The notes under the pieces: generated by a model
Database searches by the model: none
Told to the model about the DNA's origin: nothing
The model's input: the letters and a program-made list of their open reading frames with translations, nothing else
Assembly (NCBI GenBank): GCA_965203535.1
Contig: OZ241897.1
Coordinates: 452,790 to 516,789 of the forward strand
Length of the DNA: 64,000 bases
Direction of reading: 5' to 3'
Source: Acidobacteriota bacterium
GTDB lineage: Bacteria > Acidobacteriota > UBA6911 > RPQK01 > JAJDTT01
Made by a program: the position numbers and the translations under genes
Part shown: one piece after another, positions 150-39,926 of the stretch
Layout of the letters: each line of letters begins with the position of its first letter
Numbering within the stretch: position 1 is the stretch's first letter

Positions 150-345
150 ACGCAGGGGCACCCCTTGTGGGTGCCCGCCGTCGCCCCTCACTGCCCGGTC
201 CGGGGAGGGAAACCACAACGGTCAGCGAGGGCACAAGGTCCGGGGAGGGCGACCACAAGGGTCAGGGAGGGCGACCACAAGGGTCGCCCCTACTTTCCTC
301 TTTCTTTCCCGTTGCACTTTCCTCTTTCTTTCCCGTTACACTGGC
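150..345. repeat. Cluster of REP-like palindromic units (stem GGGCGACC / loop ACAAGG / stem GGTCGCCC, often followed by CTAC) in both orientations, plus two tandem copies of a 24-nt T/C-rich direct repeat (CTTTCCTCTTTCTTTCCCGTTRCA).
   Basis: Read directly. ggggcaccccttgtgggtgccc lies at ~154-176. Degenerate tandem gggagggcgaccacaagggtc units lie at ~204-290, ending in the perfect palindrome gggcgaccacaagggtcgccc. The direct repeat tttcctctttctttcccgtt(g/a)cac occurs twice at ~295-341. Short track ORFs here (37..396 etc.) are translations of the repeat. Confidence 0.75.
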
Positions 346-978: not shown

Positions 979-1887
979 CTAGCCCAGGATTTCCCGGAGC
1001 GCCGGCTCCAGATCGGGAAAACGAAAGCGGTAGCCACTCTTCTGAATCCGGTCCGGCAGCACTCTCTTGCTGGAGAGCAGCTCGACTGCAAAACCGCCCA
1101 GAACCAGTTTCAGGGCAAACCCGGGCGTGGGCAGGAACGCGGGACGGGACAGGACCTTTCCCAACACTTTGGCAAAATCCTTTTGCCGTACGGGGTTCGA
1201 GGACGTCGCATTGAAGGGGCCCGAGAGGTTCTCCCGGGCCAAAACGTGCTGCACCATTCCGATCAGGTCTTCCCGGTGAATCCAGGACCACCACTGGCGG
1301 CCCGAACCCAGGGGCCCGCCCAGCCCCAGCCGCGCCGGCAGCAGCATGGCGTCCAGGGCCCCTCCGCCCGCGGCCAGGACGATGCCGATGCGGAGATGGA
1401 CCACGCGCACGCCCGCTTCTGACGCGCGGGCGCCCTCTCTCTCCCACTGGCCGCAGACCTCTCCCAGGAAGTCGCCGGCAGCCGGCTTCGACTCGGTCAG
1501 GCTCGTCTCTCCCTGATCTCCGTAGTATCCGATGGCGCTGGCCGAGATCAGCGTCCGGGGTCCCGCTTCCGCCCGCAGCATGGCGTCGACCAGATTCCGG
1601 GTGGCGCGAACCCGGCTCTCCCGGATGGCTTGACGTTTGCCGGCGGTCCAGCGGCCGACGACGCTCTCACCCGCCAGGTGGACGACGGCGTCGACCTGCT
1701 CCAGGCTCTCGAGCGGCGGAGCCTCCTCCACCGGACGCCACGCGTACACCTGGGAAAGACCGGGAACGGCCGCCCGGGCAGCGTCCGGACGGCGTGACAG
1801 GGCCGTCACCCGGCAACCCGACTCGGACAACACCTCGCACAGCCTGTGTCCGACGAACCCGGTGGCTCCGGTAACCAGAACTCGCAT
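979..1887 (-). CDS. NAD-dependent epimerase/dehydratase family protein (YfcH/TIGR01777-like, SDR superfamily)
   Basis: MRVLVTGATGFVGHRL Rossmann motif, YGDQGE, and a C-terminal DUF1731-like tail. The start was moved to the Met preceded by ggagaggaggag. The track ORF extends to 1941. Confidence 0.8.
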   Translation of the reverse strand: MRVLVTGATGFVGHRLCEVLSESGCRVTALSRRPDAARAAVPGLSQVYAWRPVEEAPPLESLEQVDAVVHLAGESVVGRWTAGKRQAIRESRVRATRNLVDAMLRAEAGPRTLISASAIGYYGDQGETSLTESKPAAGDFLGEVCGQWEREGARASEAGVRVVHLRIGIVLAAGGGALDAMLLPARLGLGGPLGSGRQWWSWIHREDLIGMVQHVLARENLSGPFNATSSNPVRQKDFAKVLGKVLSRPAFLPTPGFALKLVLGGFAVELLSSKRVLPDRIQKSGYRFRFPDLEPALREILG

Positions 1888-2274
1888 CCCCATCTCCTCC
1901 TCTCCGGAGCGGTCCCGGCCACGGTCCGGATCGCGAACCATCCTCCACCGGCCCAGCGGGACGCTCCCCTATCTCAGTCTACCCGGCAGGCGAATCCCGG
2001 TCCAAATCCCCTCAGGGCAAGGTGGGGCCAGCGCCGCTCTTCCACTTCCACTCGTAGGCGATTCGGCGATCGAACCCCATTTCATCTCCGGTCCCGAGGG
2101 CGCTCCCACCCTCGACGCCGTATTCTGCACCACGTGAACCCGGCGAAAGAGTAGCAGGAGCATGGGACCTCCGCGCCGGACGAATATGGTTCCCGTTCCG
2201 CGCCCTGTGGTAGGCTCGATCGGCCTGCGGTCCGGGACCGGCTTCGGTTGGCCACCACCTTCTCCTGACGAGTC

Positions 2275-4539
2275 ATGAATCCGATTCAAGCTCCCGTCAC
2301 CAAGGATCTGGTTCTGGTCGGGGGCGGCCACAGCCACGTGGGAGTGCTGAAGGGCTTCGGCACGAAGCCCATGCCGGGGGTTCGCCTGACCCTCATCACC
2401 CGGGATATCCACACGCCGTACTCCGGGATGCTTCCGGGCCTGATCGCCGGTCACTACGAATACGACGAGACGCACATCGACCTGGGGCCTCTCTCCCAAT
2501 TTGCCGGCGCCCGCCTCTACCATGATGAGGCCGTCGGCCTGGACCTGGACTCCAAGAGGATTCTGTGCCGCTCCCGGCCGCCCGTGCCCTACGACCTGGT
2601 CTCCATCAACATCGGCTCCACGCCCACTCTCGATCCGGTTCCGGGAGCCGCCGAATCGGTGGTTCCGGTCAAGCCCATCGGCAATTTTCTCAGGCGCTGG
2701 GCCGAGCTCAGGCAACGTGTCCTGGGCAGATCCGGAAGCACTCGTATCGGCGTGGTGGGAGCCGGCGCCGGCGGCGTCGAGCTCCTGTTGTCGGTCCGGC
2801 ATGCGCTGGAGATGTTGCGCCGGGAATCGCGCCGGCCCCGTCAGCCTCCGGATTTCCATCTTTTTTTCGAGTCCGGGACCATCCTTCCCACCCACAATCG
2901 GTGGGTCCGGTCCAAGTTTCAACGGGTGCTCCGGCGCCGCAGCATCCGGCTCTACCCGGGATTGAGGGTCGTCCGGGTCCGGGGGCGAACCTTGGTGCTG
3001 GAGGACGGGTCCAGCCATGAAATGGATGAGATTCTATGGGTCACACGGGCCTCGGCTCCCGGTTGGCTGCGGGAGTCGAAGCTGGAGGTGGACGCCCACG
3101 GATTCGTGAACGTCGAAGCCACCCTGGAGTCGACGTCCCACCCGGGAGTCTTCGCCGCAGGAGACGTGGCCGCCGTGGCCGCCCATCCCCGGGAGAAGGC
3201 GGGAGTCTTCGCCGTCCGCCAGGGCAAGCCGCTCGAACGGAATCTCCGGCGGACCCTGCGGGGACTTCCTCCGAAACCGTTTCATCCCCAGAGAAAATTC
3301 CTCAGCCTGATCAGCACCGGAGACCGGCGGGCCGTGGCCTCCCGAGGCTCCTGGTCGCTGGAGGGCCGTTGGGTCTGGCATTGGAAGGACCGGATCGACC
3401 GGCGATTCATGGCGCGCTTCAACGACCTTTCGAAGATTCACGCCGCGCTGGCCGCTGCCCCTGGAAGAGGGGTCATGGAGACGCCGGCGGCCCCGCCCGG
3501 CGATCGCCTGATGCGTTGCCGGGGATGCGGGTCCAAGGTGGGGGCCGCCGTCCTGGAACGGGTGCTGGGCCGGATCGATCCGGGGAAGCTTCCGGATGTG
3601 GTGCTGGGCCTGGAGGCCGGGGAGGACGCGGCCGCGCTGTCGGTCCCGCCGGGACAGACCCTGCTCCAGTCGGTCGACATGTTTCCGGCCATCGTCGACG
3701 ACCCCTATGTCTTCGGCCAGATCGCCGCCAACCACTGTCTGAGCGACATCTTCGCCATGGGGGGCCGGCCCCGGACGGCATTGGCCATCGCCGCTCTGCC
3801 CTGGGCATCCGAAGACAAAATGGAAGTGACGTTGGAGGAGTTGCTGCAGGGCGCCAGGCAGATGCTGCGCCGGGCCGGGGCCGAGTTGGTGGGAGGCCAC
3901 ACGCTGGAAGGCTCCGAGCTGGCTTTGGGACTGGCGGTCTCCGGCCTGGCCGACTCCGGACGGCTCCTGCGCAAAGGGGCGATGGAGCCGGGAGACCGGC
4001 TCATCCTGACCAAGCCCCTGGGAACCGGCGCCCTTTTCGCCGCCGAGATGCGGTTGAAGGCCAAGGGGCGCTGGATTCAGGGAGCTCTGGAGTGCATGCT
4101 CCGGTCCAACCGGCGAGCCGCCGCCTGCTTTCTTCGCCACGCGGTCCATGCCTGCACCGACGTGAGCGGATTCGGTCTCGTGGGCCATCTGTTCGAAATG
4201 GTCCGGGACTCCAACGTGCAGGTCCGCATTTCATTGCCCGCCGTTCCCCTCCTGGAAGGCGCCGCCGAGACCGCCGGCGCCGGGATCCACAGTTCTCTCC
4301 ATCCCCGGAACCTCCGGTTGCAGGGAGCCGTTCGGAACCCTAGACTGGCGTCGAGAGCACCGGCCTTCCCGCTGTTGTTCGATCCCCAGACCGCCGGAGG
4401 ATTGCTTGCCAGCGTGCCGGGCCAGTGCTCGGAAGTCTGTGTCGAAGAACTGCGGGCCGGGGGTGACTCCGAGGCCACCGTCATTGGCGCCGTGGAAGCG
4501 AAGGAGGACGGGCGCGAACCCATCACCATCGACCTCTGA
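2275..4539 (+). CDS. selD: Bifunctional protein: N-terminal FAD-dependent pyridine nucleotide-disulfide oxidoreductase (NADH dehydrogenase-like) fused to C-terminal selenide, water dikinase SelD (Cys form)
   Basis: N-terminus has LVLVGGGHSHVGVL, a GxGxxG FAD motif, and later IGVVGAGAGGVELL. From about aa 395 it has the SelD signature RCRGCGSKVG (Cys where Sec/Cys sits in the CGCK motif), AIR-synthase-like GGHT, and GRLLRKGAMEPGDRLILTKPLG. It is a single uninterrupted 754-aa ORF. Confidence 0.85.
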   Translation: MNPIQAPVTKDLVLVGGGHSHVGVLKGFGTKPMPGVRLTLITRDIHTPYSGMLPGLIAGHYEYDETHIDLGPLSQFAGARLYHDEAVGLDLDSKRILCRSRPPVPYDLVSINIGSTPTLDPVPGAAESVVPVKPIGNFLRRWAELRQRVLGRSGSTRIGVVGAGAGGVELLLSVRHALEMLRRESRRPRQPPDFHLFFESGTILPTHNRWVRSKFQRVLRRRSIRLYPGLRVVRVRGRTLVLEDGSSHEMDEILWVTRASAPGWLRESKLEVDAHGFVNVEATLESTSHPGVFAAGDVAAVAAHPREKAGVFAVRQGKPLERNLRRTLRGLPPKPFHPQRKFLSLISTGDRRAVASRGSWSLEGRWVWHWKDRIDRRFMARFNDLSKIHAALAAAPGRGVMETPAAPPGDRLMRCRGCGSKVGAAVLERVLGRIDPGKLPDVVLGLEAGEDAAALSVPPGQTLLQSVDMFPAIVDDPYVFGQIAANHCLSDIFAMGGRPRTALAIAALPWASEDKMEVTLEELLQGARQMLRRAGAELVGGHTLEGSELALGLAVSGLADSGRLLRKGAMEPGDRLILTKPLGTGALFAAEMRLKAKGRWIQGALECMLRSNRRAAACFLRHAVHACTDVSGFGLVGHLFEMVRDSNVQVRISLPAVPLLEGAAETAGAGIHSSLHPRNLRLQGAVRNPRLASRAPAFPLLFDPQTAGGLLASVPGQCSEVCVEELRAGGDSEATVIGAVEAKEDGREPITIDL

Positions 4540-4583: not shown

Positions 4584-5054
4584 ATGATCGAAATCGGAAA
4601 ACCAGCCCCTGACTTCAGCCTCAAGAACCAGGCGGACCAGGACGTCCGCCTCAGTGATTACGACGGCCAGTGGGTCGTCCTCTACTTCTATCCCAGGGAC
4701 AACACGCCCGGCTGCACCGTCGAGGCCTGTGAGTTCACCTCGGGTGTGGAGGAATTCGCGGCGCTCGACGCGGTGGTCCTGGGCTGCAGCCCCGACACGA
4801 CCCGCAAGCATCGCAACTTCATCAAAAAGTTCGACCTGAAGATTTCGCTCCTGTCGGACCCCGATCACAAGGTCATGGAGGAGTACCAGGCCTGGGGTGA
4901 AAAGAAGATGTACGGCAGGACCTTCATGGGCGTGAAACGCTCCACCGTGATCATCGATCCGTCCGGCAACGTGGCTCACCACTGGCGCAGCGTCAGGGCC
5001 AAGGGACACGCCGGGAAGGTGCGGGACAAGCTGGAAAAGCTGAGGTCTGCCTGA
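4584..5054 (+). CDS. bcp: Peroxiredoxin Bcp (thiol peroxidase, AhpC/TSA family)
   Basis: YFYPRDNTPGCTVEACEF peroxidatic Cys motif. Length is 156 aa. RBS aaggaagATG. Confidence 0.85.
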   Translation: MIEIGKPAPDFSLKNQADQDVRLSDYDGQWVVLYFYPRDNTPGCTVEACEFTSGVEEFAALDAVVLGCSPDTTRKHRNFIKKFDLKISLLSDPDHKVMEEYQAWGEKKMYGRTFMGVKRSTVIIDPSGNVAHHWRSVRAKGHAGKVRDKLEKLRSA

Positions 5055-17582: not shown

Positions 17583-18527
17583 ATGAAAAGATCGACGTCC
17601 CTGTTCGTTTCCGCCATCGTGGCGATCCTCCTCACAACGGTGAATGTCCCGGCCAGGAAGATGAAGGCGGACCAACTGGTCGCCCTCCATCTGAAGTCCA
17701 TTGGCGAGAACCTGGTCTGGAAGAACCGGGTGGCCCAGGGACTGGGCACCATGGACATCCGGGTCGGAGGCCAGGGCAAGCTGGGCGGGCCCGCCATGCT
17801 GTTGGCTGAGGCCGACAAGATGCGGACCTCCTTCAATTTCGGGCACACCCAATACCCCCAGGAGACCCTGATCCGCAATGGGGACAAGGTGGACGTTGCC
17901 TACATCAGCCCGGGCGTCCGGTCTCAACTGGGGACGGCCCTCTGGAACAACTTTCCCCGGCTGGCACAGGAGGGACTCTACGGAGGAGTTCTTTCCACCG
18001 ACTGGGCGCTGCTGGACCTGAGGAAGAAGAGGGCCAAGGTCCGCTACCGGGGACTCAAGAAGTTCGAAGGGAAAGAGCTGCACGAACTGGAGTACAGGCC
18101 CAAGAAGGGAGTCGACTACAGGATCCGGCTCTACTTCGAACCTGAGACCTTCCGGCACGTGGCCAGCAGCTACCGGCTCTCGGTGCCGGGCGGCATGGGA
18201 CGAGGATTGGTGGACATTGCCGGCGACGGTCGCACCGGTGGAGGCGCAGGCGCGGGAGGTGCCACGGCCCCGGGAGGCGGAGGCTTCTCGGGACCGCAGT
18301 ACAATACTCGTCCGGGTCCCTCCGACGGGCCGGCGAACCAGAATCGGATCAACCTGGTCGAGACCTTCTCGGACTTCAAGCAGGTCGATGGGCTGACCTT
18401 GCCGCACCTTTACCGGATCACCCTCAACGTCGACGCCCAATCCGGTTTCGTCGGACACTGGGAGATCAAGATCGACCGCATGTCGCACAATCGCAAGATC
18501 TCTGCCAAAGCCTTCGCCATCAAGTAA
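17583..18527 (+). CDS. Secreted protein of an uncharacterised paralogous family, copy 1 of 5
   Basis: Sec signal peptide with AxA-type site (..VNVPA|RK). Conserved blocks LHLKSIGEN, NRVAQGLG..DIRVGG, FPRLAQEGLYGGVLSTDWALLDL, RYRGLKKFEG, RLYFEPETFRHVASSYR, DFKQVDGLTLPH, GFVGHWEIKIDRM. Gly-rich insertion GDGRTGGGAGAGGATAPGGGGFSGP. RBS aaggggtgaaacATG. Confidence 0.85.
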   Translation: MKRSTSLFVSAIVAILLTTVNVPARKMKADQLVALHLKSIGENLVWKNRVAQGLGTMDIRVGGQGKLGGPAMLLAEADKMRTSFNFGHTQYPQETLIRNGDKVDVAYISPGVRSQLGTALWNNFPRLAQEGLYGGVLSTDWALLDLRKKRAKVRYRGLKKFEGKELHELEYRPKKGVDYRIRLYFEPETFRHVASSYRLSVPGGMGRGLVDIAGDGRTGGGAGAGGATAPGGGGFSGPQYNTRPGPSDGPANQNRINLVETFSDFKQVDGLTLPHLYRITLNVDAQSGFVGHWEIKIDRMSHNRKISAKAFAIK

Positions 18528-18578
18528 ACGTCTGAACCTTGGGGAGAAGATAGACATCCAACAGAGTAACCAGGCCCA

Positions 18579-19481
18579 ATGATCCGAATAATCCATCCGG
18601 CGGCGAGAAGCAAAATCCAAACGCCATGCAGATTCGTCGCCGCGTTCGCCGCGGCAACAATTCTCTTGATGACTCCGGTTGCGTCGGCCAAAAAGATGAA
18701 GGCCGATGCGCTGGTCGCACTCCACCTGAAGTCCATCGGCGAAAATCTGGTCCGGAAGAATCGGGTCGCTCAGGGTTTGGGCACCGTGGACATCCGGGTG
18801 GGAAACAGAGCCAAGATGGTCGGTCCGGCCATGCTCCTGGCGGAGGGGAACAAGCTCCGGACCGAAATCAAATTCGGCCATCCCCAATACGCCGGGGAGA
18901 CCCTCGTCCGCAGCGGGGAGAAGCTGGATATTGCCTACGTCAGTCCAGGCGCCCGCTCCCGACTGGGGAGTACGCTTTGGGATTTCTTCCCCCGTTTGGC
19001 CCAAGAGGGACTCTACGGAGGGATCCTCTCCACCGACTGGACGTTGCTGGACCTGGAAAAGAGACGGGCAAAGATCCGTTACCGGGGACTCAAGAAGTTC
19101 GAGGGCAGGAGGCTTCACAGGCTGGATTACAGGCCGAAGAGCGGAGTGGACTACCGGATTCGGATCTACTTCGAACCTGAGACCTACCGTCATGTGGCGA
19201 GCAGATACCGGTTGACTCTTCCGGCTGGCCTGGGGCGGGGACTCGTAAACATTCGTGGAGGAGCGTTTGGAGCCGGTTCCGGGCCCGCAGACAAGATCCG
19301 AATCACCTTGACGGAGACCTTTACGGACTTCAAGGAAGTCGATGGGTTGACCCTGCCGCATCGCTACAGGATCGCCCTCAACACATCCGCCATCGGAGGT
19401 TTCGTGGGACATTGGGAAATCAAGATCGACCGCATGATGCACGATCAGAGGATCGCCGCCAGAGCGTTCCGGATCGAATAG
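18579..19481 (+). CDS. Secreted protein of the same paralogous family, copy 2 of 5
   Basis: Collinear with copy 1 and has a signal peptide (..TPVASA|KK). Short variable loop (GGAFGAGSGPADK). Confidence 0.85.
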   Translation: MIRIIHPAARSKIQTPCRFVAAFAAATILLMTPVASAKKMKADALVALHLKSIGENLVRKNRVAQGLGTVDIRVGNRAKMVGPAMLLAEGNKLRTEIKFGHPQYAGETLVRSGEKLDIAYVSPGARSRLGSTLWDFFPRLAQEGLYGGILSTDWTLLDLEKRRAKIRYRGLKKFEGRRLHRLDYRPKSGVDYRIRIYFEPETYRHVASRYRLTLPAGLGRGLVNIRGGAFGAGSGPADKIRITLTETFTDFKEVDGLTLPHRYRIALNTSAIGGFVGHWEIKIDRMMHDQRIAARAFRIE

Positions 19482-19563
19482 ATATGAGGAATGGATCCAA
19501 GGGAGGATTGCAATGGCTGGAACCCTTGGACTGGGTGACGGCCGAATGACGATGAGGTGAATC

Positions 19564-20517
19564 ATGCGAAATTGGGGATTCCGGATCGCTCTCTTCGCTC
19601 TGTTGCTGCCGTTCGCGGCCGTGGAAGTAACAGCCAAGAAGCTGAAGAAGGAGGAGTTGATCGCCCTCCACCTGAAATCCATCGGCGAGAACGCCGTCCG
19701 GAAGAACCGGGTCGCCCAGGGATCGGGCACCATGGACATCCGCGTGGGCGGCCAGGGCAATCTGAACGGCCGGGCCATGCTTTTGGCGGAGGGGGACAAG
19801 CTTCGGACCGCGCTGATCTTCAACCATGTCCAATATCCCAAGGAAACCCTCATCCGAAACGGCGACCAACTGGACATCGCCTACATCACCACCGGTGTCC
19901 GGTCCCAACTGGGGACGGTTATCTGGGAAAACTTCCCCCGGCTGGTTCAGGAGGGTCTCTACGCCGGAGTCCTTTCCACCGACTGGGCGCTGCTCAAACT
20001 GAAGGAAAAACGGGCCAGGATCCGTTACCGGGGCCTCAAGACATTCGAGGGCCGAAGGCTTCACGAAGTCGATTACAAGCCCAGGAAAAAGGTCCGCTAC
20101 CGGGTCCGGCTCTACTTCGAGCCGGAGACCTACCGCCACGTTGCCAGCAAGTATCGGATCGCCGTTCCCCGTAGCGCCATGCGTGGCCTGACCAACATTT
20201 CCAGCGGAGGAGGGGCCCCGGTGGGCGCCGGTGGCGGAATCACTCCCGGAAACCGCACCGTGTCCAATGATCGAGGAAGTCTGTTGGGGCAGATCGGAGG
20301 CCCGGGAGCCGGGGACGACCCCACAACCCGCAGCACGGTCGAACTGACGGAGAGGTTCTCGGAGTTCAAGCAGGTCGACGGTCTGACCCTGCCGCATCAC
20401 TACCAGATCTCTCTCAACGTCGATGCCAACACCGGATTCGTGGGCCACTGGGCGATGAAGCTCGAACGCATGTCGCACGATCGTCAAATCTCCCCAAAGG
20501 CCTTCGTCATCCCGTAG
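19564..20517 (+). CDS. Secreted protein of the same paralogous family, copy 3 of 5 (subfamily B, long Gly-rich loop)
   Basis: MRNWGFRIALFALLLPFAAVEVTA|KK. Long insertion SSGGGAPVGAGGGITPGNRTVSNDRGSLLGQIGGPGAGDDPTTRS. RBS aggtgaatcATG. Confidence 0.85.
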   Translation: MRNWGFRIALFALLLPFAAVEVTAKKLKKEELIALHLKSIGENAVRKNRVAQGSGTMDIRVGGQGNLNGRAMLLAEGDKLRTALIFNHVQYPKETLIRNGDQLDIAYITTGVRSQLGTVIWENFPRLVQEGLYAGVLSTDWALLKLKEKRARIRYRGLKTFEGRRLHEVDYKPRKKVRYRVRLYFEPETYRHVASKYRIAVPRSAMRGLTNISSGGGAPVGAGGGITPGNRTVSNDRGSLLGQIGGPGAGDDPTTRSTVELTERFSEFKQVDGLTLPHHYQISLNVDANTGFVGHWAMKLERMSHDRQISPKAFVIP

Positions 20518-20539: not shown

Positions 20540-21631
20540 ATGCAAGGAATCGCCGCCGTTTCGCTGGGCCCCCGAAAGGAGATGGTTTTCCGGGAATTCC
20601 CTCTTCCCGACGTGGGTCCCGACGACATTCTGGTCCGGGTGCGCCGCTCCAACATCTGCGGTTCGGATCTGCACATCTGGCACGGGCATGGGCCCGAGTT
20701 CACCCAGGGGGACGGCTTCGTCCCCGGGCATGAAATGGTGGGAGAAGTCTTTCGCCTCGGCCGCCGGGTGAAGACCGACGTTCTGGGACAGCGGCTCGAG
20801 GAGGGCGACCGGATCGCCTACACCTACTTCCTTCCCTGCGGAAATTGCGCGGCGTGCATGGACGGATCGCCCGCCTGCCCCAACCGGTCCGACCATTGGT
20901 TCCAGGATGCGAGTGAATCTCCCCACTTCCGGGGAGCCTACGGAGAGTATTACTACCTGCGCCGGGGACAGACGGTGTGCAAGGTCCCTCCCGGATTGAC
21001 CAACTCGGAGGTCTCGCCGGTCAATTGCGCCCTCTGCCAAGTGCTCTACGGACTGGACCAGATCGGGGTCCGCCTGGGCGACACCATCATCGTCCAGGGC
21101 GCGGGCGGACTGGGACTGTACGCCTGCTCCCTGGCCAAGGAGATGGGCGCCGGTCAGGTCATCGTCTTCGACCGGTTGGAGAGCCGGCTGGAGCTGGCCC
21201 GCTCCTTCGGCGCCGACCTCACGGTCAACATCGAATCCGTGAACCGGAAGACCCGTCGAGAGATGATCCTGGACCTGACCCGGGGCCAGGGCGCCGACGT
21301 GGTGGCCGAGTTCGCCGGATCACCCCTGCCGGTGGAGGAGGGCGTGCACCTGCTCCGCCAGTTCGGCCGCTATCTTTGGGTGGGAAACGTCGCCCCGGGG
21401 AGGACCGCCGCCCTGGACCCGGCCATCAGTGTCCGGTCCGGACACACCATCCGCGGAGTCATCGCGTATGCTCCTTGGGTCCTGCCCCGGGCCCTGGACT
21501 TTCTGGCCCGCCGCGGACATGCCTATCCGTTCGAGAAGATCATCTCGCACACCTTCCCGCTGACCGATATCAACGAGGCCTTCGCCCTGGCCGACGAAGG
21601 CAAGGCCATCCGCGTCTCACTGACCTCCTGA
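20540..21631 (+). CDS. Zinc-dependent alcohol dehydrogenase (MDR family)
   Basis: N-terminus of the MxAAV...FPLP..GP.D.LV.V type, catalytic Zn motif CGSDLH, structural Zn cluster CGNCAACMDGSPACPN, Rossmann GAGGLGLYA. Inserted between paralog copies 3 and 4. Confidence 0.85.
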   Translation: MQGIAAVSLGPRKEMVFREFPLPDVGPDDILVRVRRSNICGSDLHIWHGHGPEFTQGDGFVPGHEMVGEVFRLGRRVKTDVLGQRLEEGDRIAYTYFLPCGNCAACMDGSPACPNRSDHWFQDASESPHFRGAYGEYYYLRRGQTVCKVPPGLTNSEVSPVNCALCQVLYGLDQIGVRLGDTIIVQGAGGLGLYACSLAKEMGAGQVIVFDRLESRLELARSFGADLTVNIESVNRKTRREMILDLTRGQGADVVAEFAGSPLPVEEGVHLLRQFGRYLWVGNVAPGRTAALDPAISVRSGHTIRGVIAYAPWVLPRALDFLARRGHAYPFEKIISHTFPLTDINEAFALADEGKAIRVSLTS

Positions 21632-21848
21632 ACCGAAGCCGGGGAAACTGACGCAAGCCGCGTGCTGGACTTCGTCTTCGCCACCGGCTCAAACATCACG
21701 CCGTCCGCCTCCGCTTCGACGTGAACCGTCCTGGTTCAGAAACCGTCGAATCTACAAAGGAAGTAAAATGGAAGAGACCCGATCCCGAGTCGTCCTGGAT
21801 GTTCCAACGCCCGAACTCCCCGTCCACCACGCGGAGATGAAGCAAACC

Positions 21849-22811
21849 ATGAGAAAGTGGGGAAGCTGTATCGCTCTCGCTACCGTGGCATTTCTCCTGT
21901 CGACCGTGGCCGTTTCGGCCGGGAAGATGAAGACGGAGGAGTTGATCGCCCTCCACCAGAAAGCCATCGGCGAGAACCTCGTCCGGAAGAACCGGGTCGC
22001 CCAGGGATCGGGGTCCGTGGACATCCGGGTGGGGGGCCAGGGAAATCTGAACGGACGGGCCATGTTCCTGGCAGAGGGGGACAAGCTGCGGACCACCTTA
22101 ACCTTCGGTCACATCCAATATCCCCAGGAAACTCTCATCCGGAACGGTAACGACTTGGATATCGCCTATATCACTCCGGGGATCCGTTCCCAACTGGGGA
22201 CGGCTATCTGGGACAATTTCCCTCGACTGGCTCAGGAGGGACTTTATGCGGGCGTCCTTTCCACCGACTGGGCGCTGCTCAACCCGAAGAAAAAGCAGGC
22301 CAAGATCCGCTACCGAGGGCTCAAGACATTCGAGGGCCGGAGGCTCCACGAAGTCGACTACAAGCCCAAGAAGAACGTCTCCTATCGAGTCCGGCTCTAT
22401 TTCGAGCCGGAGACCTACCGCCACGTGGCCAGCAAGTATCGGATCTTCGTGCCCCGCAGCACCATGCGAGGCCTGACCAACATTTTAAGTGGAGGAGGGG
22501 CCCCGGTGGGTGCCAGCCTAGGAATTACTGCCGGAAGCCGCACCGTGTCCGGTGCACGCGGCCTGTTGGGGCAGATCGGAGGCCCGGGAGCCGGGGACGA
22601 CCCCGCAACCCGCAGCACGGTCGAACTGACGGAGAGGTTCTCGGACTTCAAGGAGGTCGACGGACTGACCTTGCCGCATCTCTACCAGATCACTCTCAAC
22701 GTCGACGCCAACACCGGTTTCGTGGGACATTGGGAGATGAAGATCGAGCGCATGGTGCACGATCAGAGGATCGCCGCCCGGGCCTTCACCATCCAGATGA
22801 AAAAGAGGTGA
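21849..22811 (+). CDS. Secreted protein of the same paralogous family, copy 4 of 5 (subfamily B, close relative of copy 3)
   Basis: Start chosen at MRKWGSCIALATVAFLL by homology to MRNWGF/MRKWGF in copies 3 and 5. The track ORF begins at 21768. Roughly 85% identical to copy 3 by eye, including the long Gly-rich loop. Confidence 0.8.
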   Translation: MRKWGSCIALATVAFLLSTVAVSAGKMKTEELIALHQKAIGENLVRKNRVAQGSGSVDIRVGGQGNLNGRAMFLAEGDKLRTTLTFGHIQYPQETLIRNGNDLDIAYITPGIRSQLGTAIWDNFPRLAQEGLYAGVLSTDWALLNPKKKQAKIRYRGLKTFEGRRLHEVDYKPKKNVSYRVRLYFEPETYRHVASKYRIFVPRSTMRGLTNILSGGGAPVGASLGITAGSRTVSGARGLLGQIGGPGAGDDPATRSTVELTERFSDFKEVDGLTLPHLYQITLNVDANTGFVGHWEMKIERMVHDQRIAARAFTIQMKKR

Positions 22812-22814
22812 ATC

Positions 22815-23717
22815 ATGCGTAAGTGGGGATTCCGGATTGCTCTTTCCGTCCTTTTGTTTCCGCTCGCCGGAGTGGACGGAACGGCCAAGAAATTAGAGAC
22901 GGACGATCTGATCGTCCTCCATCTAAAGGCCATGGGCGAGAACCCGGTGCGTAAGAATCGGGTGGCACAGGGATTGGGGACGTTGGACATCCGCGTCGGC
23001 GGCCTGGGTAAGCTGGGCGGTCCGGCCATGATTCTGGCGGAGGGGAACAAACTCCGGACCAGTTTCGGCTTCGGCCATATCCAGTATCCCAGGGAGCTCC
23101 TGATCCGGAACGGCGACAAGTTGGACATCGCCTACATCACTCCCGGCATCCGTTCCCAGTTGGGCACCGCCCTCTGGATCCACTTCCCCCGACTGGCACA
23201 GGAGGGTCTCTATGGAGGTGTCCTCACCACCGACTGGGCTCTGCTGGATCTCGAAAAGAGGCGCGCCAAGGTCCGCTACCGGGGGCTCAAGACGTTCGAG
23301 GACAGGAAGCTGCATGAGTTGGAGTATCGGCCCAAGAAGGGAGTGGAATACAGAATCCGGCTCTACTTCGAGCCTGAGACTTACCGACACGTGGCCAGCA
23401 GCTACCGCCTGACCATTCCGGCCGGCGTGGGGCGGGGGTTGATGCACGTGCAACAAGGACCCGTCTTTGGCGCCGCCGACGGGCCCGCGGACAACACGCG
23501 GATCCAATTGATAGAAACCTTTTCGGAATTCAAGGAAGTCGACGGGTTGACCCTGCCGCACCATTACCGGATCACCCTCAACGAGTCTGCGGCCACCGGC
23601 ATGGACTCGGGTGCCGGCTTCGCCCCCCGTAACGGCTTCGCAGGGCACTGGGAGATCAAGATCGACCGCATTTCTCACAAACACCGGATCACCCCCCAGG
23701 CCTTCGCCATCAAATGA
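22815..23717 (+). CDS. Secreted protein of the same paralogous family, copy 5 of 5
   Basis: MRKWGFRIALSVLLFPLAGVDGTA|KK. Starts 3 nt after the copy 4 stop. The copy 4 TGA stop sits inside the aggTGAatcATG RBS of copy 5. Confidence 0.85.
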   Translation: MRKWGFRIALSVLLFPLAGVDGTAKKLETDDLIVLHLKAMGENPVRKNRVAQGLGTLDIRVGGLGKLGGPAMILAEGNKLRTSFGFGHIQYPRELLIRNGDKLDIAYITPGIRSQLGTALWIHFPRLAQEGLYGGVLTTDWALLDLEKRRAKVRYRGLKTFEDRKLHELEYRPKKGVEYRIRLYFEPETYRHVASSYRLTIPAGVGRGLMHVQQGPVFGAADGPADNTRIQLIETFSEFKEVDGLTLPHHYRITLNESAATGMDSGAGFAPRNGFAGHWEIKIDRISHKHRITPQAFAIK

Positions 23718-33379: not shown

Positions 33380-33622
33380 CCCGCATTTCTCATCAGGTCG
33401 CTATGCGTATGATGAAAAACAATCTGGTTTTGAACATTTCCGCGGATTTTTCCAAGGATTTTCCGGGACAGACTCCGCTGGGCGCGCGCTCGCTGGTCTT
33501 TTCGCCCTCAGCGCGCACATGCTCCCTCAAACGTAGTCACCACTACGCTCTCGGTCGCGAGCACGCGCTGAGGGCGAAAATCCTGCGCGATCGTCACGCC
33601 CCCTGATGAAAAATGCGGGCTA
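33377..33622. mobile_element. MITE-like element: ~20-bp terminal inverted repeats (GCCCGCATTT(C/T)TCATCAGG) flanked by TA on both sides, an inner 18-bp inverted repeat (TTTTCGCCCTCAGCGCGC) and a central small hairpin (CGTAGTCACCACTACG)
   Basis: Read directly. Left arm cTAgcccgcatttctcatcagg at ~33376-33397 and right arm cctgatgaaaaatgcgggcTAg at ~33602-33623 are reverse complements with 1 mismatch. The inner arms are perfect over 18 bp. There is no coding capacity. The R/G-rich track ORFs crossing it are spurious. Confidence 0.6.
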
Positions 33623-35281
33623 GTCCCTTTTCGGTCGCCTGAGGGGGTCGACGGCGACCATGCCTGCGCTGCGAAATCCGAAGACCTTGGCGTTGAAGAG
33701 GCGAAAGTGCAGGCGCACGGTCTTCCCGGCCAGATCCTCGATTCCCGCGCCGTCCTTCCAGACCAGCGGAACCCAGATGCGGTTCCCCGAAATGGGTTGG
33801 GCCCGGTAGACCTTCCGGTCCGGATCCCCTTCCACCATCAACTCGACGGCTACCGATCCGGAATCACCGTGCGTGCGGAGGTTGACCTCCACCGGCTTTC
33901 CCTGGAAGCGGAACCGCTGGGTCGTGAACTGGCCCTCCTGCGCGGCCTCGATCCCGGCCAGGCGGCCATCCTCCCAGGCGGCCCAGCCGATTCCCCGAGG
34001 CCACTTCCGATCCTTCTGGAAGCGGACTTTCCACCACTCGTTGTGGGACCAACTGCTGCCGACGATGGGAACCGCGATCCGCCCGTCGGGCAGTTGCACC
34101 AGGGAGGAGACGGCGTACATGGAGCCGCCCGCCCAACTCCCCGGCTTGCCCAATTCCACGATGGATTCCCGGCTCATCCAATTCCAGACGATGCCGTCGA
34201 GGCTTGTGGCCATCCGCAGGTCGACCAGACTCGTGTCCCGGTGGTAGACGGAGGCCAGCATGAGGTGGGTGTTCTCCGTCCCCGGGTAGTGGAGGTAGGT
34301 GTTGTTGTAGAAGTCGTCGGAGGGAGACTCTTCGGGTCCGGGGGTCAGGACCAGGTTGGGATGGGGCCACCGGCGGAAATCCGAGGTCTCGGCCCGGGCG
34401 ATGCTGCGGCGGCGAGGGTAGTTCTGCCGCATCAGCATCACGTACTTTTTCAATTTGCCGTCGAAATAGATGCTGGGAACGCCGTCGTTGTTGAAATACG
34501 TGTTCCAGAGCGGTTCGGGAAGGCGTTTCCAGTGGATCCCGTCGGGGGAGACGGCCGCTCCCAGGATGCCGCTCATGCTCTTGGCATTCGGCTGAAACAA
34601 CCGGATATTGGTGAGGCTGGTGGTCTTGTACCGCTCCTCGGGAGGCGCGTTGGGATCGACGAAGATGTGACCGTTGATTCCGGCAAGGCCGTTGAGGGCG
34701 ATCAGGTTGTTGTCCCGGCTTCCCTCGAACTCCACCATGCCCATGGAGACCCGTTTCCAGTTCAGGCCGTCCTCAGACTCCGCATAGCACACCCCCGAGC
34801 CTCCGCTGTCCGACCCCAGTTTCAGGCGGCCGTCAGGGGCGATCACTGCGCGGTCCCGTACGGTCCAGCCGCAGCCATACCAGAGACGATAGCGGCCGTC
34901 CTCGTGGATCACGGCCTTGGGCCCGATGCCGCTTCTTTCCCAAGGCTTCTCCGGTTTGAGCCAGGGACCCACGGGCCGGCCCTTTTCGACTCTGATCTTC
35001 ACGCCGCTGGCGACCCGTATTCTCCGGGAGGCACTGGGTCCGTCCGAGACGTACATGGTGGCCTTGTAGTAGTCGCGCACTTTGTCGATCAGCTGCCGGT
35101 CGTGTTCGGTCACGTGGGTCAGATCGACGGGAAAGATGGCGTTTCCCGGATCCACCTTGGTCCAGTCGGTGAAGATATGAGTCACCACCGGGGAGGCGTC
35201 GTTCTGGGACAGGGAAATTCCCCACGAGAGACTGCAGACCATCCCCACCAGAATCGAATTGAAGCGGCGTTTCGTGTTCAT
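33620..35281 (-). CDS. Secreted glycoside-hydrolase-like beta-propeller protein (five-bladed GH43/GH32-clan-like; family not assigned)
   Basis: Signal peptide after the ATG at 35281 (verified), with RBS gagga. Repeated DG(I/L)HW/NW blade motifs and FEGSRDNN. Paralogous to the next gene. Confidence 0.7.
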   Translation of the reverse strand: MNTKRRFNSILVGMVCSLSWGISLSQNDASPVVTHIFTDWTKVDPGNAIFPVDLTHVTEHDRQLIDKVRDYYKATMYVSDGPSASRRIRVASGVKIRVEKGRPVGPWLKPEKPWERSGIGPKAVIHEDGRYRLWYGCGWTVRDRAVIAPDGRLKLGSDSGGSGVCYAESEDGLNWKRVSMGMVEFEGSRDNNLIALNGLAGINGHIFVDPNAPPEERYKTTSLTNIRLFQPNAKSMSGILGAAVSPDGIHWKRLPEPLWNTYFNNDGVPSIYFDGKLKKYVMLMRQNYPRRRSIARAETSDFRRWPHPNLVLTPGPEESPSDDFYNNTYLHYPGTENTHLMLASVYHRDTSLVDLRMATSLDGIVWNWMSRESIVELGKPGSWAGGSMYAVSSLVQLPDGRIAVPIVGSSWSHNEWWKVRFQKDRKWPRGIGWAAWEDGRLAGIEAAQEGQFTTQRFRFQGKPVEVNLRTHGDSGSVAVELMVEGDPDRKVYRAQPISGNRIWVPLVWKDGAGIEDLAGKTVRLHFRLFNAKVFGFRSAGMVAVDPLRRPKRD

Positions 35282-35373
35282 TTGAACAGTGTTCCTCGGT
35301 AGTTGAGACAGCGCCAATTGAGAATCCGTCCTGGCAGGGCACTCGACTTCAGCCCGGCCAGCGGATGCAGATT

Positions 35374-36873
35374 CTATCGAAACTTCAAGGAAAAGAGATC
35401 CGCGTCCTGCATCACGAAGCGCAGTCTCACCGGGTCTCCCTGGATCCTCCGCATCAGTTGTTCGGAGGTCTTCCGGGAACGGCTCCGGTCCCACCGGACC
35501 TCGTGCTCGATCTCATCTCCCCACACGATGGGCGATTCCTCCAGGGCGAAACCCGGCATCGGATTGCCGTAAACGTCCTGGATCTCGATCTGAATGCCTC
35601 CGGCGGCGGAGGTCGCGAAATTCAGGATCAGGGAGTCGCCTTCGAAGATCAGCGGTTTGGTCAAAAATTCACCACCTGCCGCCCCAGCATTCACGGAGGC
35701 GAAGCCGTCGGTCCGCATCACGAACCGCTCCAGGTGGACGCTGGGAAAAGTGTAGTGCCGCTGCACGTAGATGGAGAGTTCGTCCGGTCCGGTCGGGACC
35801 AGGCCGGTCGCCGGCGTGTTGGCGCGATGAATCCAGTTGCGGACGTGGCGGCCGGGCCGGATGAAGCCTTCCATGAAGGTGCGCTCCCAGTGCTGGCCAT
35901 CCCGGCTGCTGAGGAGGACCACGTCCGAAGCTCCCGCATACCGCTGGGACCGGTAGGGCGCCAGAGTGCGCCAGGGGACCATCCGCCGGGGAAATGCCAG
36001 AAAGATGTGGGGAGCTCGAAAATATGGATTCGCGGCATTCGTATAGAAGTGCTCGGGCGGCGCGCCTCCCACGTCGATGAACTCGGGTGGGCTCCAGCGA
36101 ATGAAATCAGGCGACGTGGACCGGACGACTTCCCGAACTCGTTGTCCCCGGAGGCCCCGGAGATAGGCGACGTATTCCTCCCGTTTTGCATCCCAGAAGG
36201 CCAGATCCCCACCCCAGTCCACAGCCTGCGTGATGAGGGGTTCGTCCTGAATGAGGCGCCAGTGGATCCCGTCGGCGGACACGACTCCCATGACGTGTTT
36301 CAGACCCGGGGTATGGTAGTTGGCCAGAGCCTTGTAACGTTGATCTTCGGGCGCCCGGGGATTCTCGTCCTTGAAGGCCATGAAGCAATGGGAGGGGTCT
36401 CCGTGTGCCCCGGTCCAGACGATGTTGTTGTCTCTGGATCCATTGAACTCGAACAGCCCCAGGGAGGGGCGGGTCCAGTGGATTCCGTCCCGGCTCTCGG
36501 CGTAGCAGGTCCACGCGGGATGGTCCGGAGTGACCGTCTCCCCCGGCTCCAGCATTGAGAAGACGGTCAGACCCTTGGCGGCATGAGTGCTCCCCCGGTA
36601 GTACATGCGATACCGGTCCCCATCCTTGAAGACCGAGATGTAGTCGCTCGTGCCCCCTTCCCATGGACGGTCGAACGAGAGGACCCTGCCGGCCGAACGG
36701 GGGGGATGAAGCTTCAACTCCACGCCCCGCATCGATTCGATCAGGGTGTCGTCGACGAACAGCTCCAAGCGAGAGCCCAGCTCCAGCGGATTCGCCTGCC
36801 GGTCGTCTCGAGCCGGAGTGAAGTGAGTCCCAAGGATAACCAGCAGGAAGACAACAACGGCGCTTCGTCTCAT
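35374..36873 (-). CDS. Secreted glycoside-hydrolase-like beta-propeller protein, paralog of 33620..35281
   Basis: Signal peptide MRRSAVVVFLLVILG. Shares FEFNGSRDNN, DGIHW and YRG blocks with its neighbour. Confidence 0.7.
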   Translation of the reverse strand: MRRSAVVVFLLVILGTHFTPARDDRQANPLELGSRLELFVDDTLIESMRGVELKLHPPRSAGRVLSFDRPWEGGTSDYISVFKDGDRYRMYYRGSTHAAKGLTVFSMLEPGETVTPDHPAWTCYAESRDGIHWTRPSLGLFEFNGSRDNNIVWTGAHGDPSHCFMAFKDENPRAPEDQRYKALANYHTPGLKHVMGVVSADGIHWRLIQDEPLITQAVDWGGDLAFWDAKREEYVAYLRGLRGQRVREVVRSTSPDFIRWSPPEFIDVGGAPPEHFYTNAANPYFRAPHIFLAFPRRMVPWRTLAPYRSQRYAGASDVVLLSSRDGQHWERTFMEGFIRPGRHVRNWIHRANTPATGLVPTGPDELSIYVQRHYTFPSVHLERFVMRTDGFASVNAGAAGGEFLTKPLIFEGDSLILNFATSAAGGIQIEIQDVYGNPMPGFALEESPIVWGDEIEHEVRWDRSRSRKTSEQLMRRIQGDPVRLRFVMQDADLFSLKFR

Positions 36874-36964: not shown

Positions 36965-37040
36965 TGGTAGCCCCAACGGGAGTCGAACCCGTGTTACCGC
37001 CTTGAGAGGGCGGCGTCCTAGGCCACTAGACGATGGGGCC
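36965..37040 (-). tRNA. tRNA-Glu (anticodon CUC)
   Basis: The reverse complement reads GGCCCCATCGTCTAGTGGCCTAGGACGCCGCCCTCTCAAGGCGGTAACACGGGTTCGACTCCCGTTGGGGCTACCA. It has a cloverleaf with 7-bp acceptor stem, anticodon stem CCGCC/GGCGG and loop CU-CUC-AA, T-loop GGTTCGA and encoded CCA. It closely resembles bacterial tRNA-Glu. Confidence 0.9.
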
Positions 37041-39925: not shown

Positions 39926-39926
39926 G

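Follow-up and report, generated by a model that had tools for sequence, protein, structure and literature searches.

The window, as we call the whole 64-kb stretch of Acidobacteriota DNA analysed here, contains close to its start a gene whose product, judged from its sequence, is a genuine Cys-type selenide, water dikinase (SelD) fused to an NADH-dehydrogenase-like flavoprotein. The features of this gene are listed below, together with the peroxiredoxin gene that follows it, which is given as context only.

2275..4539 (including the stop codon), + strand: flavoprotein-SelD fusion, complete gene, 754 aa, from the ORF list
2305..3420, + strand: NDH-2-like FAD/NAD(P)H flavoprotein domain (predicted cofactors), residues 11-382, TIGR03169
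2320..2337, + strand: first dinucleotide-binding motif, G16-G-G-H-S-H21, a GxGxxH variant and predicted FAD site
2758..2775, + strand: second dinucleotide-binding motif, G162-A-G-A-G-G167, a canonical GxGxxG and predicted NAD(P)H site
3421..3510, + strand: interdomain linker, residues 383-412, variable in length and sequence, predicted to be disordered
3511..3537, + strand: SelD active-site loop, M413-R-C415-R-G-C418-G-S-K421, with the CxxC hallmark and the predicted catalytic Cys and Lys
3508..4536, + strand: C-terminal selenide, water dikinase (SelD) domain, residues 412-754, with AIRS at 449-558 and AIRS_C at 571-746
4584..5054, + strand: peroxiredoxin of the Bcp/PrxQ type, 44 nt downstream of the fusion gene (context only)

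The original prediction had placed both domains in a single ORF of 754 aa, and its coordinates and length match the ORF list exactly. The reading frame opens with ATG and contains one stop codon, the terminal one, and zero in-frame TGA. Both loop cysteines are encoded by TGC (codon starts 3517 for C415 and 3526 for C418), followed by AAG for K421 (3535), in agreement with the predicted Cys-type SelD that has no SECIS-requiring UGA. Pfam assigns Pyr_redox_2 to residues 11-308, AIRS to 449-558, and AIRS_C to 571-746; with TIGR00476, these are the models that had been proposed as a check of the prediction, and all of them were found.

A homolog search with the fusion protein gave at least 8000 matches, and all of the matches listed (120/120) are full-length fusions of 748-826 aa with 99-100% coverage and the same three Pfam domains. 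The 90%-identity cluster of the protein comprises 12 sequences on separate contigs, every one of them 754 aa long, and seven Acidobacteriota assemblies, all long or complete, also show the continuous architecture. Inspection of the sequence near the domain junction revealed no homopolymer runs. Split copies do occur at two related loci, one frameshifted in a short-read MAG (L011) and one where broken N-domain ORFs are followed by a separate selD (L054), and they could suggest that two separate genes were joined here by an assembly error or a frameshift. Against this stand the unbroken architecture in all 120 matches listed, the seven assemblies, the 12 cluster members of equal length, and the junction free of homopolymers. 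The consistently full length of the homologs rules out a frameshift artefact, and we give the joining of two separate genes next to no credence; the statement of the prediction that the fusion is no frameshift-joined pair therefore stands. At another locus (L023), the ORF carries an N-terminal extension of 915 residues with no Pfam domain, which is probably an artefact of ORF calling. An identical protein sequence is already public, on a contig of 6.04 Mb; that copy is unlabelled, and some more distant homologs in the same source are named 'selenide, water dikinase SelD'.

The N-terminal half matches the curated model TIGR03169 (Nterm_to_SelD) over its entire length (model positions 1-365 of 365) with 484.2 bits (cutoff 310). 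Two GxGxxG motifs had been claimed for it. The second is indeed canonical (GAGAGG), and G162, G164, G167, and E169 are invariant in an alignment of 107 homologs. The first is not, reading GGGHSH: G16, G17, G18, and H19 are invariant in the same alignment, and the position of H21 is occupied by H in 96/107 sequences and by Q in 11/107, a GxGxxH variant typical of the Ndh-SelD family. The GD motif (G296-D297) is intact and conserved in homologs. The residue that ends the second beta-strand is variable, and a preference for NADH or NADPH is unreadable from the sequence.

In Foldseek comparisons with the AF2 model, the structures closest to the N-domain are type II NADH dehydrogenases (4nwz, 5kmp, 5na1, and 9a63_B; TM 0.85-0.89, rmsd 2.6-3.0 Å), and SQR structures fit less well (TM 0.71-0.79). 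Among PDB sequences, too, the N-domain matches NDH-2. No NCBIfam NDH-2 model is passed by the fusion protein. Motifs and model together thus describe the N-terminal half as an intact flavoprotein of NDH-2 fold with conserved predicted FAD and NAD(P)H motifs. The only cysteine of the domain, C98, is retained in 8 of 21 diverse fusions. An SQR-like domain with catalytic cysteines of its own was also considered and rejected, because no Cys is conserved and SQR folds fit less well than NDH-2; SQR NCBIfam models gave 27 bits against a cutoff of 525. Stand-alone TIGR03169 proteins occur in arsenosugar-type gene clusters with no adjacent selD, so that the domain has no intrinsic specificity for SelD or selenium.

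The AF2 model of the fusion is confident overall (pLDDT 87.9, pTM 0.89), with pLDDT below 50 at residues 389-415 and 417-422. The linker measures 23-34 residues in the 107-homolog alignment and its sequence is unconserved across phyla. It is followed by the active-site loop, in which the CRGCGSK motif named in the prediction is present: C418 aligns with Cys17 of the E. coli enzyme (3u0o) and with the Sec position of the Aquifex enzyme (2yye), and K421 aligns with Lys20. Neither the 107 close homologs nor a set of 21 fusions, some of them divergent, show any change at C415, G417, C418, G419, or K421. In the 107 sequences, D451, D468, D491, and D629, the equivalents of the ATP/metal-binding D51, D68, D91, and D227 of E. 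coli, are invariant as well. The mapped catalytic and metal-binding residues of a Cys-type SelD are all present.

The C-terminal half scores 296.9 bits with TIGR00476 (selD) against a cutoff of 125 (residues 412-716, model positions 5-308 of 311), matches 3u0o in PDB sequences with E = 5.8e-53, and superposes on the E. coli and Aquifex SelD structures with TM 0.80-0.85 (Foldseek). The prediction had allowed for a better fit to other relatives of AIR synthase. Identity as ThiL was rejected (95.7 bits, cutoff 184), as was identity as HypE (26.2 bits, cutoff 252), and, since the selD cutoff is passed and these two scores are far below theirs, the C-terminal half is a SelD rather than another AIR-synthase relative. 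The whole protein was likewise rejected as a TIGR04369 fusion (fusion_not_SelD; 470.8 bits, cutoff 700). That the fusion is real and kept by selection is indicated by the full length of all homologs listed and by the invariance of the FAD, NAD(P)H, and GD motifs, of the CxxC and the Lys, and of the four Asp.

This architecture is already known as the Ndh-SelD fusion, which is well catalogued and common in bacteria. It was described by Zhang and Gladyshev in 2008 (PMC2398784, PMC2432076) and by Mariotti et al. in 2015 (PMC4561486). The original prediction had considered it rare and sporadically reported, a view contradicted by the existence of the curated TIGR03169 model, by the at least 8000 matches, and by the literature, where it is 'by far the most common' SelD fusion (PMC4561486). 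It is spread over many bacteria and is also found in protists (PMC4561486), occurs in abundance in aquatic and marine organisms of oxic habitats, and represents about 40% of the Cys-type SelDs of the Global Ocean Sampling metagenomes (PMC2398784). All of the fusions are Cys-type and none is Sec-type (PMC4561486), and the CxxC is reported in every one of them, as against less than 5% of single-domain SelDs (PMC2398784). The carriers listed in 2015 are Cyanobacteria, Alpha-, Beta-, and Gammaproteobacteria, and protists (PMC4561486); an Acidobacteriota host is a minor widening of this range, and public databases already contain sequences of this kind. Our literature searches found bioinformatic and comparative-genomics descriptions of the family and no experimental work on it, so that its designation in the prediction as functionally uncharacterised appears correct.

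Within the 64-kb window we found no selA, selB, selU, yqeB, yqeC, or tRNA-Sec, which extends to the whole window the earlier statement that no selA, selB, or ybbB is adjacent. The window also yielded no SECIS or other Rfam matches and no candidate selenoproteins with an in-frame UGA; each of the three TGA matches returned by the scan is the normal stop codon of a gene that lies in frame with the next one. No selenophosphate-consuming genes were present within 10 kb of the fusion gene in eight close relatives. Among the 18 non-Acidobacteriota loci mapped, seven have mnmH/selU (NF008751, 468 bits) beside or near the fusion gene, and the fusion homologs that adjoin it are 38-50% identical to the protein studied here.

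The downstream gene, predicted to be bcp, is recognised as a Bcp/PrxQ-type peroxiredoxin by both Pfam (AhpC-TSA, 139 bits) and NF006960 (140.4 bits, cutoff 140). No terminator-like site was found in the 44-nt gap, and the two genes are probably co-transcribed. Their adjacency is observed at all eight close Acidobacteriota loci compared (relatives 85-97% identical) and at locus L064, and is absent at the fusion loci of other phyla. Because it is kept only among close Acidobacteriota relatives, the adjacency carries no functional weight, and a functional link between the two proteins was set aside as unsupported.

On balance, we lean towards a working selenophosphate synthetase of the Ndh-SelD class in which the flavoprotein half reduces CxxC-bound selenium for use at the SelD site. 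The flexible linker of about 30 residues leads directly into the mobile loop C415-x-x-C418-G-x-K421. Selenite or a thiol-selenium adduct would react with the CxxC to give a Cys-S-Se-S-Cys selenotrisulfide or a Cys-S-Se(-) perselenide, and the flavoprotein half would pass electrons from NAD(P)H to FAD and on to the selenium held by the pair. Once this selenium is reduced, C418 would carry selenide or perselenide; closure of the loop over the ATP site would follow, and selenophosphate would be formed there and made available to pathways that make selenouridine and/or selenocysteine. A single chain would in this way perform the relay that a free-standing SelD obtains from thioredoxin reductase and thioredoxin or from NifS-like proteins. 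That a flavoprotein acts on selenium for SelD is a hypothesis already published for Ndh-SelD (PMC2432076), and the route by which electrons would pass from FAD to the CxxC is purely inferred. A role in selenium metabolism is supported by the mnmH/selU genes found beside or near the fusion gene in other phyla. The flavoprotein has no conserved Cys of its own, so that the CxxC is the only conserved thiol pair available, and at locus L054 the separate SelD beside a stand-alone N-domain gene has an E. coli-type GCGCK loop instead. In the AF2 model, the CxxC loop comes directly after the flexible linker; no other extended stretch of the model is disordered, which fits a loop that can move between two sites. 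There is also a precedent for the chemistry: selenite is reduced by the CxxC pair of thioredoxin together with NADPH and the flavoprotein thioredoxin reductase, and in E. coli TrxA has an important part in making selenoproteins (PMC8538045). On the other side, the fold of the N-domain is nearest to quinone-reducing NDH-2 and not to disulfide reductases, and stand-alone TIGR03169 proteins exist with no adjacent selD. The stricter version of this proposal, in which the fused flavoprotein is a dedicated, built-in selenium reductase, NAD(P)H reduces the selenotrisulfide or perselenide on the CxxC, and the loop carries the selenium into the ATP site, is a serious possibility that we put forward tentatively.

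The features that argue for delivery of selenium could also be explained by repair. The flavoprotein would then only keep C415 and C418 reduced, undoing in aerobic cells an inactivating intramolecular disulfide, and selenide would arrive by the usual external routes. The specificity of the invariant CxxC for fusions (PMC2398784 and our alignments), the abundance of Ndh-SelD in oxic aquatic and marine organisms (PMC2398784), the exclusively Cys-type nature of the fusions (PMC4561486), the lack of a cysteine pair in the flavoprotein domain, and the thiol peroxidase gene that adjoins the fusion gene in the Acidobacteriota lineage all agree with such a role. However, the thioredoxin and glutaredoxin systems already reduce disulfides of this kind, and a dedicated domain of 380 residues seems a costly addition; we consider repair rather unlikely. 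What separates the two roles is the substrate alone (S-S or S-Se-S), and they could both hold.

It is still less probable that the N-domain has an independent, NDH-2-like activity, acting as a reductase of quinone or small acceptors or as a membrane tether and performing no chemistry on the SelD loop, so that SelD would be placed at the membrane or tied to the respiratory redox state. The best structural matches of the domain are type II NADH:quinone oxidoreductases, at the high TM values given above and over nearly the whole length of these enzymes, and stand-alone homologs function without SelD; yet this explanation accounts neither for the strict co-occurrence of the CxxC with the fusion nor for the constant N-terminal position of the flavoprotein, with the active-site loop right after the linker. 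Finally, the protein might be no selenium enzyme at all, being either a TIGR04369 look-alike or a protein whose C-terminal half is a ThiL/HypE-type kinase of the AIR-synthase family. A high raw score with TIGR04369 and the lack of any other selenium gene in the 64-kb window would be compatible with this, but the TIGR04369 score stays under its cutoff of 700, TIGR00476 is passed at more than twice its own, and ThiL and HypE are far below theirs. The catalytic Cys, the Lys, and the four Asp are moreover present and invariant, and the homologs at 38-50% identity adjoin mnmH/selU. We therefore regard a function outside selenium metabolism as very improbable.

As a genome feature, the gene is ordinary, being correctly fused and correctly recognisable as belonging to a curated, abundant family, and its source organism, from an Acidobacteriota lineage absent from the 2015 list of carriers, is likely a selenium user. 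If the flavoprotein is indeed a built-in reductase, the Ndh-SelD fusions would form a class of SelD that is self-sufficient for selenium activation, independent of a NifS-like lyase, of thioredoxin, and of free selenide, and would provide a tractable single-protein model of how SelD obtains its physiological selenium substrate. The physiological selenium donor of SelD is still debated, and a reductase and a SelD on one chain would be a convenient system for addressing that question. The main value of the present case is as a reminder that the N-terminal domain has no biochemical characterisation in the literature found, despite the large share that these fusions hold among the SelDs of aquatic bacteria.

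Compared with other members of the Ndh-SelD family, the protein has the same domain order, length (about 750 aa), Cys-type residue, and invariant CxxC; it passes both curated thresholds (TIGR03169 and TIGR00476) and presents no structural difference. With the SelD of E. coli (3u0o) and Aquifex aeolicus (2yye, 2zod) it has in common the fold of the C-terminal half (TM 0.80-0.85), a Gly-rich mobile N-terminal loop with the catalytic residues (Cys or Sec, and Lys), and, in the case of E. coli, the four Asp, conserved in the fusion as D451, D468, D491, and D629. The second Cys is placed differently, being two residues after the catalytic one in E. coli (C17-G-C19) and three residues before it in the fusion (C415-R-G-C418), and the position of E. 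coli Cys19 is Ser or Ala in fusions. In addition, the loop of single-domain SelD is a free N-terminus, whereas that of the fusion is tethered to a flavoprotein of 380 residues.

The type II NADH dehydrogenases (Caldalkalibacillus thermarum 4nwz, B. subtilis YjlD 9pxk) share with the N-domain an architecture of two Rossmann folds, the rmsd of 2.6-3.0 Å applying to about 386-391 alignment columns, nearly the full length, and are like it devoid of a redox-active cysteine pair. Sequence identity is only 17-23%, and, unlike NDH-2, the fusion has GGGHSH as its first nucleotide motif and a C-terminus that runs into the linker and SelD. The 'oxidoreductase/SelD-related fusion protein' family (TIGR04369) has the same two-part layout, and this model gives the 470.8 bits reported above; its cutoff of 700 is missed and the selD model is passed, and the protein is therefore not a member.

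The selenite relay of thioredoxin reductase and thioredoxin (PMC8538045) also brings together a flavoprotein, NAD(P)H, and a selenium-binding CxxC. The resemblance is a functional analogy only, implying no homology of the CxxC context: the relay is made of separate proteins, and thioredoxin reductase has a redox-active disulfide of its own. In the NifS-SelD fusions (Geobacter sp. FRC-32), which are rare and in Geobacter Sec-type with CxxU (PMC4561486, PMC2398784), the selenium-supplying partner is likewise N-terminal to SelD; this partner is, however, a PLP-dependent selenocysteine lyase or cysteine desulfurase and not a flavoprotein.

The fusion gene (2275-4539, plus strand) is a single 754-aa ORF whose sole stop is terminal, as the original prediction had it, with no homopolymer runs around the domain junction. 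The ORF runs uninterrupted from one domain into the other, so that no stop or frameshift divides them and the fusion is genuine. Three Pfam domains were recognised in its product:

Residues 11-308, Pyr_redox_2
Residues 449-558, AIRS
Residues 571-746, AIRS_C

The N-terminal 372 residues cover the NCBIfam model TIGR03169 ('Nterm_to_SelD') end to end (484 bits, cutoff 310), and residues 412-716 match selD (TIGR00476, 297 bits, cutoff 125). ThiL and HypE scored far under their NCBIfam cutoffs, so that the C-terminal half is SelD and not another AIR-synthase relative. Membership of TIGR04369 ('oxidoreductase/SelD-related fusion protein') was rejected (471 bits, cutoff 700). Among solved structures, E. 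coli SelD (3u0o, E = 5.8e-53) is the best match to the C-terminal half; in its alignment C418 and K421 fall on Cys17 and Lys20, and counting along it equates D451, D468, D491 and D629 with E. coli D51, D68, D91 and D227. In the alignment with Aquifex SelD, C418 falls on the Sec position. The active site reads MRCRGCGSK (M413 to K421), with C415 and C418 both encoded by TGC (at 3517 and 3526) and no in-frame TGA in the ORF, in agreement with the predicted CRGCGSK motif carrying Cys rather than Sec and with the predicted lack of a SECIS-requiring UGA. Of the two GxGxxG motifs expected in the flavoprotein, the second is canonical (GAGAGG, G162 to G167); the first (GGGHSH, G16 to H21) is a non-canonical variant typical of the family.

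Across 107 homologs (57-97% identity) C415, G417, C418, G419 and K421 never vary, nor do they in 21 fusions from other phyla (38-90% identity); D451, D468, D491 and D629 are likewise invariant in the 107 homologs, and the position of E. coli Cys19 is occupied by Ser or Ala in the fusions. The flavoprotein cofactor motifs are also kept (G16, G17, G18, H19, G162, G164, G167, E169, G296 and D297 invariant). C98 of the N-domain is retained in just 8 of 21 diverse fusions, so a conserved cysteine is missing from this half. Neither the sequence nor the length (23-34 residues) of the linker (residues 384-412) is conserved across homologs. An AlphaFold2 model built from the alignment was confident (mean pLDDT 87.9, pTM 0.89), its sole extended low-confidence stretches being 389-415 and 417-422, that is, the linker and the CxxC...K loop; the high pTM of this two-domain chain may indicate a defined domain arrangement. 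In Foldseek searches of the PDB, the best superpositions of the N-domain were with type II NADH dehydrogenases (TM 0.85-0.89, rmsd 2.6-3.0 A), those with sulfide:quinone reductases being poorer (TM 0.71-0.79), and the C-domain superposed on SelD (TM 0.80-0.85); no solved structure spanned both domains (top query-normalised TM 0.47).

Far from being a rare architecture reported sporadically, as originally predicted, the fusion yielded at least 8000 matches in a homolog search, and among the matches listed all 120 were 748-826 aa long with 99-100% query coverage and the three Pfam domains seen here. An identical protein is public already, on a 6.04-Mb contig, and its 90%-identity cluster holds 12 sequences, all of 754 aa and on separate contigs; an artefactual fusion is extremely unlikely. 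The nearest genomes are Acidobacteriota MAGs (85-92% identity), and Alpha-, Beta- and Gammaproteobacteria and Planctomycetota have full-length fusions too. Ndh-SelD fusions have been in the literature since 2006-2008, and reduction of a selenium compound by the NADH oxidoreductase, to supply SelD, has been proposed (PMC2432076). In Global Ocean Sampling data they make up ~40% of Cys-type SelDs, and all of them carry CxxC at the active site, against <5% of single-domain SelDs (PMC2398784). According to Mariotti et al., the Ndh type is 'by far the most common' among SelD fusions, the partner is always N-terminal and the SelD always Cys-type, with a NifS-SPS fusion as the sole Sec exception, and protist copies came by horizontal transfer; their carrier lineages do not include Acidobacteriota (PMC4561486), beyond which the present gene widens the taxonomic range slightly. 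The predicted identity is correct, and the family to which the protein belongs, as an ordinary member, is known, curated and abundant. The description as functionally uncharacterised seems right, since no experimental study of the fusion was found in the literature searched.

The protein is very probably a functional Ndh-SelD selenophosphate synthetase. Of the 18 fusion loci mapped outside Acidobacteriota, 7 carry a gene for the tRNA 2-selenouridine synthase MnmH/SelU (NF008751, 468 bits) adjacent to the fusion or close by, as clustering of neighbours showed. This connects the fusion class with the use of selenophosphate, and we hold a paralog acting outside selenium metabolism to be very improbable. 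PhnD-type ABC transporter genes adjoin or lie near the fusion gene in several proteobacterial loci (among them L008:12382-15385, L010:14121-16712, L022 and L042). Their substrate-binding protein passes TIGR01098 (148 bits, cutoff 112) and only weakly resembles a 'putative selenate ABC transporter' (TIGR04553, 78 bits, cutoff 250); the transporter may serve uptake in connection with SelD. Other loci depart from the common form, two of them with the fusion split. In Ca. Skiveiella danica (L054:9830-12223, a long-read MAG), broken N-domain ORFs precede a separate selD with a loop of E. coli type (GGGCGCK) in place of CxxC. In L011:4456-6727 a frameshift interrupts the fusion near residue 377 despite 92% identity to the query, probably through assembly error. 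In a Planctomycetota MAG (L023:4000-9036) it ends a 1678-aa open frame in which no Pfam domain was recognised over the first ~915 residues; either this stretch is an artefact of ORF calling, the DNA being GC-rich, or it is a further N-terminal module that is uncharacterised.

Within the window, the fusion gene is flanked by:

979-1941, minus strand, yfcH-type epimerase gene, upstream and divergent
4584-5054, plus strand, Bcp/PrxQ peroxiredoxin gene, same strand, 44 nt downstream

The peroxiredoxin neighbour is the one predicted; beyond it, the opposite strand carries leuD, leuC and leuA. Between the fusion gene and bcp there is no terminator-like site, so co-transcription is likely. This adjacency is confined to close Acidobacteriota relatives and was not seen in other phyla, and therefore tells little about function. 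The predicted absence of adjacent selA, selB and ybbB extends to the whole 64-kb window, which contains no selA, selB, selU, yqeB or yqeC, no credible in-frame-UGA gene, and no tRNA or other Rfam match besides tRNA-Glu. In close relatives (L002-L007, L011, L064:3491-6112) a gene for a ~870-aa TonB-dependent receptor (Plug and beta-barrel), divergent from the fusion gene, lies between it and yfcH; the window lacks this gene and has just a 333-bp intergenic region there (1942-2274), and in relative L001 the upstream region is wholly different.

Elsewhere the window carries what looks like a DISARM-like anti-phage core (38747-45207, minus strand), close to tRNA-Glu (36965-37040), together with other features:

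41800-45207, minus strand, DrmA (PADLOC PDLC02575, 650 bits)
39927-41807, minus strand, DrmB (173 bits; Pfam MZB domain)
38747-40072, minus strand, UvrD/GajB-like helicase
197-285, tandem repeat of period 22/40, at the left edge of the window
292-342, tandem repeat of period 24 (96% matches, 2.1 copies)

The region may be a tRNA-adjacent defence island; three large neighbouring ORFs (33620-35494, 35374-36873, 37140-38750) matched nothing in Pfam or PADLOC. The repeats (197-342) lie upstream of a glyoxalase-family gene (393-779). A zinc-type alcohol dehydrogenase gene (20540-21631) splits a series of five consecutive ORFs of ~300-350 aa (17583-20517 and 21768-23717, plus strand) that have coding-like GC3 and no Pfam match.

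The flavoprotein domain also occurs alone. Stand-alone TIGR03169 proteins with no adjacent selD were found among loci L027-L062, mostly from Betaproteobacteria (Accumulibacter, Burkholderiales, Thauera), for example:

L037:10004-11107 (399 bits)
L039:2407-3402
L054:5171-5890
L042:6298-8457

Their recurrent neighbours are the arsenosugar radical-SAM (seleno)protein ArsS (TIGR04167, 450 bits; 8 loci), the TIGR04283 arsenosugar glycosyltransferase (11 loci) and an uncharacterised N-terminal region (~230 aa) fused to a MerA/dihydrolipoyl-dehydrogenase-like FAD oxidoreductase (18 loci). Because of this recurrence beside arsenosugar-type genes, the domain may also serve arsenic chemistry, or metalloid chemistry generally.

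The fusion brings together SelD and flavoprotein halves that are both intact, joined by a flexible tether that runs straight into a fusion-specific CxxC loop, and its remaining interest lies in the biochemistry of the flavoprotein domain and the selenium trait of this Acidobacteriota genome. We tentatively propose that electrons would pass from NAD(P)H to the FAD of the flavoprotein half and on to selenium bound at CxxC; this selenium, derived from selenite or thiol-selenium adducts, would be present as a selenotrisulfide or perselenide, and after its reduction the loop would close over the ATP site to give selenophosphate. A direct redox link is favoured because CxxC strictly accompanies the fusion, because the flavoprotein itself lacks a cysteine pair and because the active-site loop comes directly after the linker. 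Caution is due because the N-domain fold is nearest to quinone reductases, not disulfide reductases, and because stand-alone TIGR03169 proteins exist without selD in arsenosugar-type clusters. That the flavoprotein instead repairs the CxxC disulfide would suit the strict pairing of motif and fusion; we regard it as unlikely. An independent NDH-2-like role appears more improbable still. For the selenium-reduction relay, the TrxR/Trx system offers an experimental precedent by analogy: TrxR and the CxxC of Trx reduce selenite with NADPH, and TrxA is important in E. coli selenoprotein synthesis (PMC8538045).
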